Numbered from the stretch's first letter, positions 18,145 to 44,013 are shown. The stretch: 64,000 nucleotides of DNA from an uncultured Holophagales bacterium (GCA_963842525.1 CAWJGT010000001.1:192001-256000), one strand, 5' to 3'. Notes: generated from the letters alone by a model not told the origin. Translations and numbers: made by a program.

Positions 18145-19977
18145 TCACCGCAGCCGCTGCAGGAGCCGGCGGGAGCGGGAGACCGCCTCCGAGATCAGGT
18201 CCCCGGTCGCCGAGAGCTGCGGCGCATAACGGAGGTAGTGGAGGTCGTCGGCCAGACGGACGAGCTCCTCGGCCGCGGCCGGGTCGGCGCTACGGGCTAC
18301 CAGCAGCTCGCGCCAGCGGGTCGAGGGGGTCCCGGGCGGGATGTCCCACCGCGCGGCCAGGTGCTCGCGCCAGACCTCCTCGATGCGCGCTGCGGCCTGC
18401 CGTGGCCGGCTCTCGGCCGCCGCCTCGCCGAGCTTGCGGTCGAGCCCGTGCAGGGATGGCCGCGCCGTCGCCGTCGCCGCCGTCGCTCCCGTCGCCTCCG
18501 TCGCAGACACCGCCGGGTGGCGCCGCCGCGCCAGGGTGACGACCAGGGCGATCCCCCACGGCAGCGCGAACAGCCAGGGGAGCGTCCGGTCCCAGGAGAG
18601 CAGTCCGCTGACAGGGGTCAGGGCGGCGCTGCGGATCGGGTGGGGCTCGCCTTTCGCCGTCGGGCCGGAGATCCGCGGCAGGGCGCGGATCGCGAGCGGC
18701 GGCACCGCGGCGCGGCGGTATTGCCGGCTCTGGGGATCGAAGTAGGAGATCTCCGGCACCTGCAGCTCGATCCGGCCGGCCCGGTCGGGGACGACCACGT
18801 AGCTCCAGGTACGCTTGCCCTGGAGCACCGTCCCGGCGAATTTCTCGTCCCCCTGCTGCTGGGGCGGATGGACGGTCAGGCCCGGCGGCGCGTCGATTTG
18901 CGGCTCCGGCACGGTCTGCAGATTGCCCTGGCCGGAGAGCGTCACCGTCAGCGTGGCCGCCTCGCCCATGTGGAGCTCGGGCGGCTCGACGTGTGCAGCG
19001 AGCGACATCCGGCCGACCGCGCCGCCGAAGCCGGCCGGCGCCGGAGGGAGCGGCTGGACGTCCACCGAAACCGGGTTGGTCCGCAGGCGGGCCTGCTCGG
19101 GCCGCGCCAGCGGAGGACCGAAGAAGCGCCGCTCGAGGACGCGCACCAGGAGGTCCATCTCGGTCGGCTCGAGCGTGCTCCGCCCGGCGCGCAGCGGGAA
19201 GATGGCGCGCTGGAGCAGGGGCATCCGCCCGTACCGCTGGCCGCCGACGTCGACCATCTCGGTCGTCAGGCGCTGCGGCAGCGGGAGGTCGCGCACCCAG
19301 AACCCCCGGAAGGTGGGCAGCTCGCGCGGCTGGACGGAGCTCACGTCGTCGCGCGTGTAGAGATAGACCGTGTAGACCGCCTGCTGGCCGACGAACGGCC
19401 GCTCCGGCTCGACGGTGGCGCGGAGGAACACCGCGGGATCGCGCGGGGCCGGGCGCCAGGGGGGCCGAATGCGGCCGAAGAGCTGCTCGAAGGGGTCCGT
19501 GGCGTGGTCCCGCGGATCACTGCCGAGGCCGGTCGGCTCTTCCTGGACCGAGACCTCGCGGTCCCGCAGGCGCACGGTCTCGTCGCGCATCCGCAGGACC
19601 ACCGAGCGTACCCGTGCCTTGCCGGTGGTGACGGGGCGCAGCCGCCACGAGATGCGGGACGCGCTGGAGAGGGCGCCATTGACGAGACGGAAGTCATCGG
19701 ACTGATAGGGGCCGCCGACGACCTCAAAGTTCTCCAGCTCGAAGGAAGGGCGGAAGCGCAGCCGCCCGAGGCCGTTGCTGCGGACCTCGATGGTGAAGGA
19801 GACCGTCTCGTCGATGCCGATCACCTCCGGCTCCAGGGCCGCCTTCACGATCACCTCGCCGGCGTGGCCGGGCACGGCGAGGACCGTCAGCAACACGAGA
19901 AGGAGGGCGAGCGTCCCCCCTCTCCCGGCGGGGGGTGGAAGGGAGACGGGAGAGGGGGCCAGGGGGTGAGGTTTCAC
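18145..19977 (-). CDS. batD: BatD family protein (N-terminus derived from a palindromic repeat)
   Basis: FGGAVG, LTVTLSGQGNL, YFDP motifs; GTGA overlap with the upstream stop. Confidence 0.85.
   Translation of the reverse strand: MKPHPLAPSPVSLPPPAGRGGTLALLLVLLTVLAVPGHAGEVIVKAALEPEVIGIDETVSFTIEVRSNGLGRLRFRPSFELENFEVVGGPYQSDDFRLVNGALSSASRISWRLRPVTTGKARVRSVVLRMRDETVRLRDREVSVQEEPTGLGSDPRDHATDPFEQLFGRIRPPWRPAPRDPAVFLRATVEPERPFVGQQAVYTVYLYTRDDVSSVQPRELPTFRGFWVRDLPLPQRLTTEMVDVGGQRYGRMPLLQRAIFPLRAGRSTLEPTEMDLLVRVLERRFFGPPLARPEQARLRTNPVSVDVQPLPPAPAGFGGAVGRMSLAAHVEPPELHMGEAATLTVTLSGQGNLQTVPEPQIDAPPGLTVHPPQQQGDEKFAGTVLQGKRTWSYVVVPDRAGRIELQVPEISYFDPQSRQYRRAAVPPLAIRALPRISGPTAKGEPHPIRSAALTPVSGLLSWDRTLPWLFALPWGIALVVTLARRRHPAVSATEATGATAATATARPSLHGLDRKLGEAAAESRPRQAAARIEEVWREHLAARWDIPPGTPSTRWRELLVARSADPAAAEELVRLADDLHYLRYAPQLSATGDLISEAVSRSRRLLQRLR
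19914..19972 (-). repeat. CCCTCTCCC/GGGAGAGGG repeat in frame in the batD N-terminus
   Basis: Encodes PHPLAPSPVSLPPPAGRGG. Confidence 0.85.
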
Positions 19978-22829: not shown

Positions 22830-23944
22830 CCCGCCTTCTCCAGCCGCTCGGGCAGATCGACCGGCTCGACCGGCCGCAGGTGCTGCTCCATCACGCGCGC
22901 GATCTGGCGCGCCGCGGCGACGCGCTCCCGTGTCCGTTCCTGGCCGACCTCCTGCCGCGCGAACTTCACCAGGTCGCAGGCCCTCAGCAGCTCCGCCGCC
23001 GGCCGCACCAGGGCCCCGGGCAGGCGGAGAGCGAGCCGGCGCTGGATCTCGCTCGTGGTGCTCTCAAGGGCCGGGATGTCGAGGCTGCGGCCCAGGTACT
23101 GCCGGAGCGCCCGGCTGAGGCGCGTGTGGAGCCTGACCGTGGACGGCTCATCGCCCAGGCGGTCGAGCTCGCCCAGCAGCTCGTCGAACGGAGGCAGCGG
23201 CGGCCGGGCCGCCTCGGTCGCCGCGACGGTCCGGCGCCCCTGCCGCCAGACGGCCCAGAGGGCGAGGAGTGCCACGGCGGACAGGGCCGCCAGGGTCCAC
23301 CAGAACGCGGCGCCGATCGGCAACTGGCGCGGCGGCGCGGCCGGCTTCGGCTTGGGGTCCTTTTCATTGGATGGGAAGACCGACCGGACCTGGACCGCCA
23401 GGCCCGCGGGGGTCTGCACCTGGAGCGTCCGGTCGCGCAGAGGGACGGCCACCGCGACCGGCGGCAGCTCGACCCGGCCGGTGCGGAACGCCGCGAGGAC
23501 GACCCGCTGCCGCCAGACCGCCGCGCCATTCTCCTCGCCGGTCCTCTGGGCCTGCCCCTTCTCCAGGACCTCCGCCTCGCCCCAGGTCCGGCCCCGCTGT
23601 TCCCAGACCGGGAACCGCGGATCGCCCGCGAGGCTCGCCGGGTCCACCCGCAGGGTCAGGACGGCCTCGATCCGGTCCCCCACCGTGACCTGCCGCGGGT
23701 TCAGGGTGACGTCGAGGCGGGGAGCGGGTTGGGCCAGGGCAGGGAGGGACAGGAGGACCAGCAGGCATCCCAGGGCCGCCCGGAGCCCCTCACCCCCCGG
23801 CCCCCTCTCCCAACCGCCCTCCCTTCCTCCGGGAGAGGGGGAGGAAAAACGCACAGATCCGGATGAGGCTGCCTCCTGCGAGGCTCCCCTCGCCCGGTGG
23901 TGGGGGAGGGCGGACTGGGAGAGGGGTCGGGGGTGAGGGCTCAC
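22826..23944 (-). CDS. Bat-operon hypothetical membrane protein with a repeat-derived N-terminal extension
   Basis: LRQYL, ALESTTSEI, DLVKFA; GTGA overlap with the DUF58 stop. Confidence 0.8.
   Translation of the reverse strand: MSPHPRPLSQSALPHHRARGASQEAASSGSVRFSSPSPGGREGGWERGPGGEGLRAALGCLLVLLSLPALAQPAPRLDVTLNPRQVTVGDRIEAVLTLRVDPASLAGDPRFPVWEQRGRTWGEAEVLEKGQAQRTGEENGAAVWRQRVVLAAFRTGRVELPPVAVAVPLRDRTLQVQTPAGLAVQVRSVFPSNEKDPKPKPAAPPRQLPIGAAFWWTLAALSAVALLALWAVWRQGRRTVAATEAARPPLPPFDELLGELDRLGDEPSTVRLHTRLSRALRQYLGRSLDIPALESTTSEIQRRLALRLPGALVRPAAELLRACDLVKFARQEVGQERTRERVAAARQIARVMEQHLRPVEPVDLPERLEKAG
23787..23941. repeat. Inverted pair of CCCTCTCCC/GGGAGAGGG repeats inside a reading frame
   Basis: Copies at about 23787-23841 (+) and 23885-23941 (-). 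Confidence 0.85.
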
Positions 23945-40481: not shown

Positions 40482-41462
40482 TCAGGCGGGCTCCGCCGGT
40501 TGGCGCCGCCACCGCTTGTGCCACCAGACCCACTGCTCGGGGCGGCGGCGGATCTGCTGCTCGATGGCGGCGGTCATGACGGCCGTGGCCTCCCGCGGGT
40601 CGTCGGGGAGGTCGAGGGCGGGGTGGAAGGTGACGAGGTGGTCGCCGTCCGGGAGGCGCTCGATGAAGGAGGGGATCACCCGCGCTTTCTGGCGGAGAGC
40701 GATCTCGGCGGCTCCCACGGGGGTGAAGGCGGGACGGCCGAAAAAGGGGACCCAGACGCCGTCGACCTTGGTGTCCTGGTCGATGAGCATGGCGAGGGCG
40801 CCGCCGCTGCGCAGGGTGCCGAGGAGCTGGCGGGCCGCTCCCGGGGTGCCTCGCGCGATGGTGGTCGTGCCGAAGTGGGCCCGGAGGTCCACCAGGATCT
40901 TCTGGACGGCCTGGTCGTCCAGGGGCCGGGCCACCGCGGCCGGCGGGAAGCCGCTGTCCGCCAGGACCGTGCCGATCAGCTCCCAGTTGCCGCAGTGGCC
41001 GGTGAGGATCAGGACCGGCCGGCCGGCGGCGCGCGCAGCCTCCAGCTCTTCGCGGCCTTGGACCGCGAGGTGCCGCAGGATCTCCTCGCGGTCCCGCTTC
41101 AGGAAATGGAGGAGCTCGGCAAGGTTCATCCCCGCCTGGAGGAAGGCGGCCCGGCCGATGCGCCGGCGCTCCGGCTCGGGCACCTCGGGCAGCGCGAGGG
41201 CGAGGTGGTCCAGGGACCGGCGGCGGTCACGGCTGGAGAAGCGCCAGGCGAGCCGGCCAAGGGTCCGGCCGTAGGCCAGGGCAGCCCGCCGCGGCAGGAG
41301 GCCGAACCAGAGAGCGAGGCCGCGGACGGCCACCGGCAGCAAGGCGGACCGCAGACCGCTCAGAGCGCGGCGGCGCCGGGATCTGCCCGCTCCGGACGCG
41401 GTCCCGGGCGCCGAGGAGGACCGGATCAGCCGGATGCCGGATTCTTCACGTGGTGCCGGCAT
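40482..41462 (-). CDS. lpxL: Lipid A lauroyl/late acyltransferase
   Basis: TGHCGNWE, LIDQD, VPFFG, PEQWVWWHKRW. Confidence 0.88.
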   Translation of the reverse strand: MPAPREESGIRLIRSSSAPGTASGAGRSRRRRALSGLRSALLPVAVRGLALWFGLLPRRAALAYGRTLGRLAWRFSSRDRRRSLDHLALALPEVPEPERRRIGRAAFLQAGMNLAELLHFLKRDREEILRHLAVQGREELEAARAAGRPVLILTGHCGNWELIGTVLADSGFPPAAVARPLDDQAVQKILVDLRAHFGTTTIARGTPGAARQLLGTLRSGGALAMLIDQDTKVDGVWVPFFGRPAFTPVGAAEIALRQKARVIPSFIERLPDGDHLVTFHPALDLPDDPREATAVMTAAIEQQIRRRPEQWVWWHKRWRRQPAEPA

Positions 41463-42000
41463 CGGATCCCAGGTAGCGCGCGATCAGCTCCTCCCACTGC
41501 CCGCGCGCGTGCAGCACGACCTCGCACATCTCGCGCACCACGCCATCCCCTCCCTTGCGCAGCAGGACCCGGTCGACCCGCCCCCGCACCTCGGCGACGG
41601 CGTCGGCCGGGGCGAAGGAGAGGCCGCAGCGGCAGAGGACCGGGATATCCAGCAGGTCATCGCCCAGGTAGGCGACCCGCTCGGCGGCCGTGCCGTGCGA
41701 CGCCAGGAATTCGTCGAAGGCCGGCTCCTTGTCGGAGCGGTCCATGAGCAGGGCGTTCATCCCGATCTCGCCGGCGCGGACGCGCAGGGCCTCGCTGATG
41801 CGGCCGGAGAGGATGCCCACCTTGAGCCCCGCCTTCTGCGCCAGCTTGAGCCCCAGGCCGTCGCGTACGTGGAAGACCTTCAGCTCTTCGCCTGCAGAGC
41901 CGTAGACGAGGCGGCCGTCCGTGAAGACGCCGTCCACGTCGAAGAGCAGCCATTCGAGGGCCCGGGCGCGCTCCGCCAGGGTTGCATCGGTGAGGATCAC
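41446..42000 (-). CDS. kdsC: KDO 8-phosphate phosphatase
   Basis: DVDGVFTDG, FHVRDGLG, GDDLLD, GGDGVVRE. Confidence 0.93.
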   Translation of the reverse strand: MILTDATLAERARALEWLLFDVDGVFTDGRLVYGSAGEELKVFHVRDGLGLKLAQKAGLKVGILSGRISEALRVRAGEIGMNALLMDRSDKEPAFDEFLASHGTAAERVAYLGDDLLDIPVLCRCGLSFAPADAVAEVRGRVDRVLLRKGGDGVVREMCEVVLHARGQWEELIARYLGSDAGTT

Positions 42001-42008
42001 GCCGCCTC

Positions 42009-42998
42009 TCAAAACAGCTCCAGCCGCCACAGGTCGTGCAGGTGGACGACCCCTTCGAGCCGCCCCTCCGGATCACAGACGAAGAGCGAGGTGATGCGGT
42101 GCTCCTCCATCTTCTGGAGAGCGGCGGCGGCAAGCTCGTCGCCCGGGATGGTCCGCGGGCTGCGGTGCATGTGCTCAGCCGCCGTGTGGCGCAGGAGCCC
42201 GTCGTCGGTTTCGAGCGCGCGCCGCAGGTCGCCGTCCGAGATGCAGCCGAGGAGCCGCCCTTCGGCGTCGACCACCGCGGTGATCCCCAGTTTCTTCCTC
42301 GACATCTCGTAGATGGCGTCGCGCATCGGGGTCTCGGCCGTCACCTGCGGCAGGGCGTCGCCCGCGTGCATGAGCTGGTGGACCCGGAGCAGGCGCCTGC
42401 CGAGCCGGCCGGCGGGGTGGAGGCGCGCGAAGTCCTCGCGGGTGAAGCCGCGCGCTTCCAGGAGGGCCATGGCCAGCGCGTCTCCGAGAGCCAGGGTGGC
42501 GGTGGTCGAGGCGGTCGGGGCCAGGTTCAGCGGGCAGGCCTCGCGGTCGATGGCAGCAGGTAGATGGATGTCGGCGATCCGGGCGAGCGGGCTCGCCGCA
42601 TTGCCGGTCATGGCCACCAGCGGCACCCCGAGGCGCTTCAGGGTCTCGACCAGCCGCAGCAGCTCCTCGTTCGTACCCGAGTAGGAGGCGGCGAGCACCG
42701 CGTCGCCGGGGACGATCATCCCCAGGTCGCCATGGACCGCTTCGGCCGGATGGAGGAAGAAGGACGGCGTGCCTGTCGAGGCCAGGGTCGCCGCGATTTT
42801 CTTCATCACGAGGCCGCTCTTGCCCATGCCGGTGCAGACCACCCGGCCGGGGCAGGCACGCAGCAGCTCGACCGCCTGGTCGAACCGCTCGTCGAGCTGG
42901 TCGACAAGGCCCTCGATCGCCGCGGCCTCGGTGCGCAGGACCTCGACGGCGACCTCGCGGGAGGTCCTGACGGCAGCGGGCTTTTCGGCGAGGCTCAT
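42009..42998 (-). CDS. kdsD: Arabinose-5-phosphate isomerase (KpsF/GutQ)
   Basis: GMGKSG, STGTPS.F.HPAEA.HGDLG, LAPTAST, CBS pair. Confidence 0.95.
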   Translation of the reverse strand: MSLAEKPAAVRTSREVAVEVLRTEAAAIEGLVDQLDERFDQAVELLRACPGRVVCTGMGKSGLVMKKIAATLASTGTPSFFLHPAEAVHGDLGMIVPGDAVLAASYSGTNEELLRLVETLKRLGVPLVAMTGNAASPLARIADIHLPAAIDREACPLNLAPTASTTATLALGDALAMALLEARGFTREDFARLHPAGRLGRRLLRVHQLMHAGDALPQVTAETPMRDAIYEMSRKKLGITAVVDAEGRLLGCISDGDLRRALETDDGLLRHTAAEHMHRSPRTIPGDELAAAALQKMEEHRITSLFVCDPEGRLEGVVHLHDLWRLELF

Positions 42999-43186
42999 CG
43001 GCCGCCCTCCCGAAGAACCTCACCCCCTGTCCCCCTCTCCCATCTCCCACCCTCCCATCCCCGGGAGAGGGGGGACGTTGTTGATGCCCTTGTGGCGATC
43101 TCGCGGAACGGCTCCGGATGCGTTCCCCCTCTCCCGGCGGGGGGTGGAAGGGAGATGGGAGAGGGGGACAGGGGGTGAGGTCTCAT
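42995..43186 (-). other. 63-codon repeat-derived bridge ORF between kdsA and kdsD
   Basis: ATGA overlap at both ends; made up of an inverted pair of the CCCTCTCCC repeat (about 43018-43075 and 43123-43181). Confidence 0.7.
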
Positions 43187-44013
43187 GCCGCAGCCTCCAC
43201 CACGACCTTCCTCAGCTTCACCAGCGATTTGAGCAGCTCCTCCGCCCGCTCGGGCGGGAGCTGGACGGCGCGGTCGGAGAGTGCCCTGTCCGGCTCGGGG
43301 TGGACCTCCAGGAAGACGCCGTCGGCGCCGGCGGCCACGGCGGCGCGGGCGAGCGGCTCGGCGAAGCGGCGGTTGCCGCCGCTCTCCTCGCCGCCTCCGG
43401 GGAGCTGCAGCGAATGGGTCACGTCGTAAATGACCGGGATGCCCTCGTCGTGGAGGATGGCAAAGCTCCGCATGTCCACCACCAGGTTGTGGTAGCCGAA
43501 GGAGACACCTCTTTCGGTCACGGTCACCCGGTCATTGCCGGCGCTGCGGGCCTTGTCCACCACCTTGCGCATGTCGTCCGGCGCCATGAACTGGCCCTTC
43601 TTGATGTTCACGGCGCGGCCGGTCGCGGCGGCGGCCACGACCAGGTCGGTCTGGCGGCAGAGGAAGGCGGGGATCTGGAGGACGTCGCAGACCTCGGCTG
43701 CCGGAGCGCACTGGTGCGGCTGGTGGACGTCGGTCAGGACCGGCAGTCCGGTCTCTTCGCGGGCCAGCTTGAGGATCCGCAGCCCCTCCGTGAGGCCCAG
43801 GCCGCGGAAGCTGCCGATCGAGCTGCGGTTGGCCTTGTCGAAGGACGCCTTGAAGATCAGGCCGATCCCCAGCCGGTCGGCCAGGGCGGCCAGGACGTGC
43901 GCGGCCTCCAGGGTCCGCTCCTCGCTCTCCACGACGCAGGGGCCGGCGATCACCGGCAGCGCGTCCCCCCCGAGGACGATCCCGGGGGCCAGCTCGACGG
44001 GACGGACCGCCAT
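43183..44013 (-). CDS. kdsA: KDO 8-phosphate synthase
   Basis: AGPCVVES, KASFDKANRSS, QIPAFLCRQTD, NIKKGQF. Confidence 0.96.
   Translation of the reverse strand: MAVRPVELAPGIVLGGDALPVIAGPCVVESEERTLEAAHVLAALADRLGIGLIFKASFDKANRSSIGSFRGLGLTEGLRILKLAREETGLPVLTDVHQPHQCAPAAEVCDVLQIPAFLCRQTDLVVAAAATGRAVNIKKGQFMAPDDMRKVVDKARSAGNDRVTVTERGVSFGYHNLVVDMRSFAILHDEGIPVIYDVTHSLQLPGGGEESGGNRRFAEPLARAAVAAGADGVFLEVHPEPDRALSDRAVQLPPERAEELLKSLVKLRKVVVEAAA

Follow-up and report, generated by a model that had tools for sequence, protein, structure and literature searches.

The DNA analysed here is a stretch of 64,000 nt from an uncultured Holophagales bacterium (GCA_963842525.1 CAWJGT010000001.1:192001-256000), referred to below as the window. 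It carries an operon in which, according to NCBIfam matches, pyrG, kdsA, a short open reading frame (ORF), kdsD (KpsF/GutQ family), kdsC and a lipid A acyltransferase gene follow one another, all on the minus strand. Our subject is the junction between kdsA and kdsD, two genes of this 3-deoxy-D-manno-octulosonate (KDO)/lipid A cluster, where an inverted pair of palindromic repeats is crossed by an ORF of 63 codons, the bridging ORF. The genome under study (G000) comprises 9.95 Mb, with contigs of 65 to 69% G+C, and was compared with relatives that include the same-genus genome G004. The features of the locus are the following.

43183..44010, minus strand: kdsA (3-deoxy-8-phosphooctulonate synthase, KDO-8-P synthase); NCBIfam NF003543, 381 bits; stop codon TGA at 43185-43183.
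43194..43198, minus strand: GGAGG within the last kdsA codons, 7 nt upstream of the ATG at 43186-43184, read from the sequence.
42995..43186, minus strand: bridging (putative relay) ORF, 63 codons, from the ORF listing and the reading of the sequence.
43121..43181, minus strand: first repeat unit on the mRNA (C-rich arm), A-CCTCACCCCC-TGT-CCCCCTCTCCC-loop-GGGAGAGGGGG, a member of the genome's repeat family.
43078..43120, minus strand: spacer of the doublet, 43 nt, also present in other 163-nt copies of G000, for instance on contig C25.
43017..43077, minus strand: second repeat unit, inverted (G-rich arm), ending in GGGGGTGAGGT.
42994..43016, minus strand: the 23 nt from the hairpin to kdsD codon 2, TCTTC-GGGAGG-GCGGCCG-ATGAG.
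42009..42998, minus strand: kdsD (KpsF/GutQ-type arabinose-5-phosphate isomerase); NCBIfam TIGR00393, 339.5 bits.
41446..42030, minus strand: kdsC (KDO-8-P phosphatase), in the same tightly packed operon, overlapping the end of kdsD by 22 nt (42009-42030) and the longest acyltransferase ORF by 17 nt (41446-41462).

The initial annotation of this DNA had described a 63-codon ORF with ATGA at both ends between kdsA and kdsD, together with an inverted pair of palindromic repeats. The ORF listing and the sequence bear out the former in every detail, and the repeats are present, with arms at 43017-43077 and 43121-43181. The ATG of the bridging ORF (43186-43184) overlaps the kdsA TGA (43185-43183) in the sequence gcggcATGAgacc, and its TGA (42997-42995) overlaps the kdsD ATG (42998-42996) in the sequence ggccgATGAgcc, the minus strand over the junction reading ...gtgGGAGGctgcggcATGAgaCCTCACCCCC...GGGGGTGAGGttcttcGGGAGGgcggccgATGAgcctcgcc.... 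Both ends thus have the make-up of a coupled gene pair, namely an ATGA-type overlap plus a Shine-Dalgarno sequence in the upstream frame. At the kdsA end, the empty site of G004 has GGAG at the position equivalent to the GGAGG at 43194..43198, which, judging from this comparison, is the former ribosome-binding site of kdsD and now that of the bridging ORF. At the other end, kdsD has a Shine-Dalgarno sequence of its own at 43011-43006 (GGGAGG-N7-ATG), and a TGA in the second repeat unit (43022-43020) shuts the kdsD frame upstream of its present start.

The insert is a 165-nt inverted doublet with arms of 61 nt each, 89% complementary and 43 nt apart, each of them containing its own 11-12-bp palindrome. 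As RNA, the doublet folds with -154.5 kcal/mol (z = -8.8; 0 of 200 shuffles as good), the hairpin beginning 2-3 nt past the kdsA stop. Because two of the three minus-strand frames are stop-free across the insert, the open frame alone means little. The informative feature is the ATGA-ATGA geometry: the two ATGA sites lie 188 nt apart (2 mod 3), so that the first ATG and the second TGA share a frame. Compared with relatives and with other copies of the repeat in G000, this bridging geometry is evidently not a one-off.

The junction was searched in 41 relatives and then in all 92 genomes of the family, and 84 junctions were scored; 13 family genomes were left unscored (5 without a kdsA match, 5 broken at a contig end, and 3 with broken alignments). 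In 74 of the 84 junctions, the kdsD frame can be followed upstream without a stop as far as an ATG, GTG or TTG that overlaps the kdsA TGA (an NTGA overlap); 73 of these were flagged by the scoring, and G088 was added for a 328-codon ORF from the overlapped ATG. Seven junctions have no NTGA overlap, at least two of which (G057 and G060) have a longer overlap instead, and the last three are bridged (G000, G005 and G074). The same-genus genome G004 represents the empty site, with the sequence gcggcGTGAGCGTCGCTGAAAAG, and the kdsD 5' end in the window, ATGAGCCTCGCCGAAAAG, is orthologous to GTGAGCGTCGCTGAAAAG of that empty site. By this comparison, the direct NTGA overlap of kdsA and kdsD is the ancestral state, and the empty site that the initial annotation had proposed to look for in relatives has been found.

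A junction was counted as repeat-bearing if the stretch from kdsA codon -23 to the KdsD core had at least 3 motif hits, and 18 were obtained; the translation frame is continuous in all 18, and none is uncoupled. In 15 of them, the repeat is read in frame from the overlapped start. For 14 relatives it forms an N-terminal extension of KdsD, made of a single unit (G001, G003, G082/G072, G066, G019/G083) or of a doublet or larger array (G079, G084, G076, G064/G052, G077, G095), and in G006 it forms a C-terminal extension of KdsA, which still ends in ATGA. One and the same unit is read in different frames in G082 and G019, and both regain the kdsD frame. The in-frame cases of genus g5 have 71-254 nt from the kdsA stop to the KdsD core, compared with 11 nt in 8 of the repeat-free junctions of that genus. 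Extensions without any repeat are also found: in genus g10 (the G010 group; L022, L023, L067, L080, L086, L087), KdsD has Pro/Ala-rich N-terminal extensions with stop-to-core distances of 53-233 nt, all in frame with the overlapped start, and the KdsD N-terminus is therefore permissive and length-variable.

The other three repeat-bearing junctions are out of frame, and all three are bridged from the overlapped NTG to a TGA overlapping the kdsD ATG, by 63 codons in G000, 64 in G005 and 88 in G074. Relative to G000, G005 has indels of 2, 5, 3 and 19 nt and a spacer of unrelated sequence; the ATGA of G005 is non-homologous to that of G000 and lies 18 nt further on, and the ORF still stops exactly there. 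The bridge of G074 spans a different MITE (short for miniature inverted-repeat transposable element), about 260 nt long and bounded by 21-nt terminal inverted repeats (GGTAGAGACGTCCCAGTCCGTT..., locus L047), and its downstream sequence ATGAGCGGCTCT matches the ancestral start of G053. Outside the 18, three junctions broken at a contig end (G002, G009 and G067) have a unit directly after the NTGA with the frame open to the end of the contig, and G086 has a unit in frame. The anatomy of the junction, its ancestral state and the conservation of translational continuity are thus matters of observation.

The same arrangement is found elsewhere in G000, where 123 repeat blocks lie tightly between co-directional genes. 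At 33 of these blocks no stop interrupts the downstream frame as far back as a start at the upstream stop, at 17 a bridging ORF ends -4 to +10 nt from a downstream start candidate, at 15 a spanning ORF ends elsewhere, and 58 have none of these. Altogether 19 bridging ORFs are listed in G000, 12 of them running NTGA-to-NTGA across repeat copies. Half of these (6/12) end on the element's own terminal GGGGGTGAGG, and the downstream genes there appear, from their sequence, to begin with V-R and then hydrophobic residues, which would fit an original NTGAGG start fused to the terminus; the other six end on a separate ATGA or TTGA past the element. Two bridged loci, C25 and C33, were compared with same-genus genomes. 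The empty sites of C25 (G004, G002 and G001) are ATGA overlaps, and G000 has at this place GTGA, 68 codons and ATGA, with a downstream ATG that has no Shine-Dalgarno sequence. The empty sites of C33 (G001, G005 and G003) are ATGA overlaps as well, and G000 has ATGAGCT twice, the second unit being read in frame.

A phase test independent of start-codon calls was performed with element-free co-directional pairs with 60-400-nt gaps as controls. Upstream and downstream gene share a frame in 22 of the 123 pairs that carry an element vs 421 of 1241 controls (Fisher p = 2.5e-4), and the depleted phase is the only one that allows neither a fusion nor an NTGA relay. Frame retention, which the initial annotation had wished to see counted against chance, is accordingly far from it, both across species (18/18 continuous) and within G000. 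The ribosome-relay idea of the initial annotation has, on the whole, partial support.

A further suggestion of the initial annotation was that ATGA is a target-site duplication, which would make insertions coupling-neutral by mechanism. As a rule for the repeat family this does not hold, since the 148 doublets examined have no flanking duplication: 4-nt flank identity was found in 7/148 vs 0.7 expected, longer identity in none, and the 10-mer similarity between the two flanks of the doublets equals that of the shuffled control. At kdsA/kdsD the idea survives in a modified form, with ATGAG on both sides of the insert and a single copy in the empty site, and with a stretch of 23 nt before kdsD that resembles the kdsA 3' end. 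Both junction copies share the GGAGG-N7-ATGAG architecture, and when the 23 nt between hairpin and kdsD were aligned locally to kdsA 3' ends, the score was 20 to G005 (7/805 null flanks as good) and 18 to the kdsA end of G000 itself (9/805 null flanks as good), these being uncorrected counts from five comparisons. With this moderate support, it is likely that about 23 nt of the junction were duplicated at kdsA/kdsD and that the copy has diverged, which would explain why a complete ribosome-binding site and start are present downstream while the old ones remain upstream. The duplication fixes no frame, because the distance could equally be 0, 1 or 2 mod 3. A distance of 0 mod 3 results in a fusion, 2 in a relay, and 1 in an ORF overrunning the kdsD start; only 0 and 2 occur at kdsA/kdsD.

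The repeat family itself is abundant. BLAST finds the 61-nt arm 407 times in the 9.95-Mb genome, and the 12-base terminus, with at most 1 mismatch, occurs 805 times in G000, corresponding to about 805 units. These termini group into 631 blocks, including 464 single units and 152 doublets, the latter with lengths that are mostly 1 mod 3. The conserved family end reads ...GGGAGAGGGGG-NCA-GGGGGTGAGG, followed by T (54%) and then by pyrimidines. In a scan of one genome per species for the motif GGGAGAGGGG-N4-GGGGTGAGG, the matches listed come from at least Chloroflexota, Planctomycetota, Acidobacteriota, Armatimonadota, Proteobacteria and Bacteroidota, plus others. Two further family termini lie in the window, at 19948-19971 (plus strand) and 23788-23811 (minus strand), which differ from the 24-base end by 1 and 2 mismatches. 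On contig C3 of G000 (73174-73359), a 163-nt doublet is enclosed in a 25-nt perfect outer inverted repeat, ggtggtggcgcgggcgggaga ... tctcccgcccgcgccaccacc, and longer versions of the element therefore exist. Where BLAST matches of other copies extended into the kdsA end, they turned out to be similarity of G-rich flanks plus, at one copy, a longer outer inverted repeat, and they do not demonstrate a longer mobile unit.

Rfam returned no real family for the insert, only sub-threshold matches to microRNA hairpin models (best 43.5 bits vs a gathering score of 77). As for a mobilizing partner, the genome has 20 matches to PF01797 (8 full length), the Y1 transposase family of the transposases associated with repetitive extragenic palindromic (REP) sequences, known as RAYTs, and none of the 11 best, which were checked, has a repeat unit within 2 kb. 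A parent insertion sequence (IS) with the same ends was sought among 41 left-right terminus pairs lying 0.5-6 kb apart, which include no recurrent transposase-bearing unit. Their sole recurrent size class, of 1.3 kb, is a segment of a non-ribosomal peptide synthetase (NRPS) gene, flanked on either side by in-frame units. It corresponds to a condensation-domain segment at C20:42803-44107 and C30:21207-22510 of G000, and these in-frame units imply that the repeat family is translated within large synthetase genes. Apart from this, three full-length Y1 (IS200/IS605-type) transposase genes lie within 4 kb at C34:527792-531498 of G000, none of them near the repeat family.

The placement of the family relative to genes follows a pattern. 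Among the 242 termini with a called gene reading toward them (-80 to +60 nt), the stop lies 0-3 nt from CCTCACC in 127, and the stops at 0-4 nt from a terminus (135 termini) are TGA in 79 cases, TAG in 42 and TAA in 14. Counted independently of gene calls, a stop triplet is found 0-3 nt from the terminus at 194/805 termini vs 49/805 at the control offset. The copy next to kdsA, TGA-ga-CCTCACC, has a distance of 2 nt, so that its placement is the usual one for the family. Blocks with genes on both sides are mostly located between co-directional or convergent genes. Inside called genes there are 152 of the 631 blocks, with 188 termini that are read in all five stop-free frames.

Taking these findings together, we propose that a doublet of the BoxC/triplex-motif type would have been inserted into the ancestral 4-nt NTGA overlap of kdsA and kdsD. 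The initiation site that kdsD had before (GGAGG, 7 nt, ATG on TGA) would have been left at the kdsA end, where it now would open the 63-codon frame; this frame would cross the stop-poor hairpin and end on the TGA overlapping the present kdsD ATG, itself probably lying in a copy of the former junction, about 23 nt long, that brings its own GGGAGG-N7-ATG. Ribosomes coming off kdsA would enter the bridging ORF, open the hairpin while covering the C-rich RNA, and on reaching the kdsD start they would terminate and re-initiate. Such a relay would keep kdsA and kdsD coupled and would avoid an untranslated, structured gap of 190 nt in the operon, the bridging peptide being presumably a by-product. 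We infer the translation of the ORF, as well as the relevance of relay, unwinding and polarity protection for kdsD.

On balance, we regard it as fairly probable that the bridging ORF is a selected ribosome relay. This reading is favoured by the ancestral NTGA overlap in 74/84 junctions with its empty site in G004, and by the continuity of all 18 repeat-bearing junctions in spite of varied insert sizes (71-254 nt in g5). It is also favoured by the ORF of G005, which still stops on a non-homologous ATGA despite indels that are not multiples of three, by the bridge of G074 across an unrelated MITE, and by the 12 NTGA-to-NTGA bridging ORFs elsewhere in G000, with ATGA overlaps at the empty sites of C25 and C33. 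The depletion of the same-frame phase and the preservation of the old GGAGG-N7-ATG geometry by the bridging ORF point in the same direction.

Several observations weigh against the relay. The bridging ORF has no coding signature, with a G+C content at the three codon positions (GC1/2/3) of.64/.73/.67 vs.75/.45/.94 in kdsA and.74/.48/.91 in kdsD, and open frames are cheap in this DNA. The Shine-Dalgarno sequence of kdsD itself is strong and ideally spaced, so that the gene could initiate alone. Masking of this sequence was considered and discarded: a longer fold pairs the GGGAGG locally, but the small 43-nt hairpin involved is no stabler than shuffles (z = 0.10; 98/200 shuffles as good). Maher's work, summarised in PMC4666352, found that such units lack terminator and promoter activity in E. 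coli, so that the hairpin may need no rescue. The relatives are kin, and the 18/18 may correspond to perhaps about 10 independent configurations; in-frame survivors partly reflect the trivial need for a translatable essential gene. In G034, which belongs to another family, a related unit follows a TAG stop in a spacer of 195 nt, without coupling; its relative G037 also has no stop/start overlap. Within G000, the null of the phase test behind 22/123 vs 421/1241 is maybe not exactly uniform, element lengths being mostly 1 mod 3, and the gene calls come from our own crude GC3-based caller (6044 genes, 69% of the genome). A search of sequencing runs listed 20, which contain at most 0.12 of the sampled words, and no RNA run was among those listed.

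Some of these points would be expected if the ORF were a neutral by-product. In that case, the repeat would have arrived with a short duplication of the junction, kdsD would use its own Shine-Dalgarno sequence, and the ORF would be a leftover start in stop-poor DNA, stopping on the ATGA passively on account of the duplicated TGA. The GGGAGG-N7-ATG of kdsD agrees with this account, as do the two of three frames open across the insert, the absence of codon bias and the apparent duplication, whose TGA would stop the ORF in one third of cases by phase alone. However, G005 has lost the duplicated NTGA and its ORF still ends exactly on a different ATGA, none of the 18 junctions is uncoupled, the third phase is depleted genome-wide, and the downstream start at C25 has no Shine-Dalgarno sequence to rely on, all of which makes a neutral origin unlikely in our view. 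An RNA-level role and a functional peptide are less likely readings. The hairpin could mainly be a regulatory RNA element setting the kdsA:kdsD ratio, acting for instance in processing or stability, in partial termination or as a brake on translation, with the ORF only modulating it. The very stable stem would suit such a role, and so would its position 2-3 nt past the kdsA stop, shared by the family at 0-3 nt past stops (127/242 termini), and the precedent of REP-type repeats, which are mostly found downstream of ORFs and to which an action on RNA is ascribed (PMC3733652). We consider it improbable nonetheless, as most relatives translate the repeat within KdsD or KdsA, contrary to what a conserved role at the RNA level would demand, no U-tract follows the stem, and PIT/BoxC units are reported to have shown no terminator activity in E. 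coli (PMC4666352). That the 63-aa product is a functional small protein is highly improbable: the ORF is intact and has a good ribosome-binding site, but its GC3 is 0.67 vs 0.91-0.94 in the neighbouring genes, its product matched no NCBIfam family, the peptide of G005 differs completely in its middle part, and other copies of the repeat in G000 are read in each of the five stop-free frames.

Beyond the selected relay at this junction, the repeat as a whole might be an operon-compatible selfish element, which settles after stop codons or in overlaps and whose copies in operons persist only if translated, either as an extension or through an NTGA-to-NTGA relay; we put this forward as a tentative and rather doubtful possibility. 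The ends of the element may be shaped for translation, being stop-free in 5/6 frames, with GGGGGTGAGG carrying an SD-like (Shine-Dalgarno-like) GAGG and a GTGA stop/start, and the other end an anti-SD-like CCTCACC. If true, this would be a general rule linking the spread of a repeat to translational coupling. The usual view of small palindromic repeats is that they are intergenic passengers or regulators at the RNA level, and the approximately 80 genomes plus a dozen loci in one genome assembled here form a natural series in which a repeat in a coupled pair seems to be tolerated only if ribosomes can pass between the genes. Should reporters confirm the relay, it would explain very stable hairpins inside essential operons, supply an annotation rule for repeat-derived hypothetical small ORFs, and provide a testable handle on the weight of stop/start coupling in GC-rich bacteria.

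In known translational coupling, the stop and start codons overlap (ATGA) and the translation of the downstream gene depends on that of the upstream ORF. The junction described here resembles such systems in the 4-nt overlaps at both ends, the Shine-Dalgarno sequences in the upstream frame and the termination on the next start, and differs from them in that the coupling is chained through a non-coding, repeat-derived ORF over a hairpin of about -150 kcal/mol.

The doublet resembles the REP/REPIN-RAYT systems in having two inverted palindromic units that form one long hairpin (PMC3116915, PMC3337134) and in its location, since REPs are mostly downstream of ORFs, with some in genes, and their ends can supply a stop codon (PMC3733652). 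However, it has no GTAG or CGTC tag, its termini being CCTCACC / GGTGAGG, its units are longer (about 60 nt), and none of the 8 full Y1-transposase genes of G000 lies within 2 kb of a unit. Of the features of a classical MITE, terminal inverted repeats are present, whereas a fixed-length target-site duplication and a parent IS were not found. The Geobacter uraniireducens MITE Chunjie is different, an A+T-rich, classical MITE with 21-bp terminal inverted repeats and 9-bp direct repeats (PMC3184786, PMC10969869). Closer in behaviour are the Rickettsia palindromic elements (RPEs), palindromic repeats that survive in frame within protein genes (PMC10969869), just as the present family does in the KdsD or KdsA extensions of 15 relatives, in the NRPS units and in the 188 termini inside genes. 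Sequence and host are unrelated, RPEs are described as encoding a conserved peptide whereas the units here are read in any of five frames, and the available part of that source does not describe the out-of-frame, bridging solution for RPEs (PMC10969869). The repeat family, in-frame palindromic insertions such as RPEs, and ATGA coupling are therefore all already known, whereas no description of a repeat-derived ORF chained NTGA-to-NTGA across an operon hairpin, recurring within a genome and between species, was found in the literature searched, whose scope did not extend to supplements and the Chunjie paper.

In sequence, the unit agrees with the BoxC / PIT / "G/C-rich intrastrand triplex motif" (TM) family. 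In E. coli these units, also named "TMECO", have the structure CCCTCTCCC-loop-GGGAGAGGG-NNNN-GGGTGAGGG (Holder 2015, PMC4666352); there are 23 copies, five in inverted pairs, always intergenic and never linked to a transposase, and related G/C-rich motifs occur in >260 genomes (PMC4666352). The block order CCCTCTCCC - loop - GGGAGAGGG - 3-4 nt - GGGTGAGGG is shared by the arm described here, CCCCCTCTCCC...GGGAGAGGGGG-ACA-GGGGGTGAGG, which matches the three blocks of Table 1 of PMC4666352. The general habit is also common to both, namely dispersed and multi-copy, often in inverted pairs, with no transposase link and in many phyla; G000 has 805 termini, with 148-152 doublets, and the search for an autonomous element in it found none. 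Among the differences, the first loop has 21 nt here compared with 3-5 nt in E. coli (PMC4666352), so that only the second loop, of 3 nt, fits the 1-6 nt of the ITxF search definition, whereas some relatives, such as G084, have a 3-nt first loop. The number of units is about 805 here, compared with 23 in E. coli and 443 in Microcystis (PMC4666352). E. coli copies have no preferred distance to ORFs (PMC4666352), whereas here 127 termini abut a stop and 152/631 blocks lie in genes, and relay ORFs are not mentioned in the available text of PMC4666352. With the copies compared in this work, the BoxC/triplex-motif family, described as strictly intergenic in E. coli, would be extended to copies that are translated.

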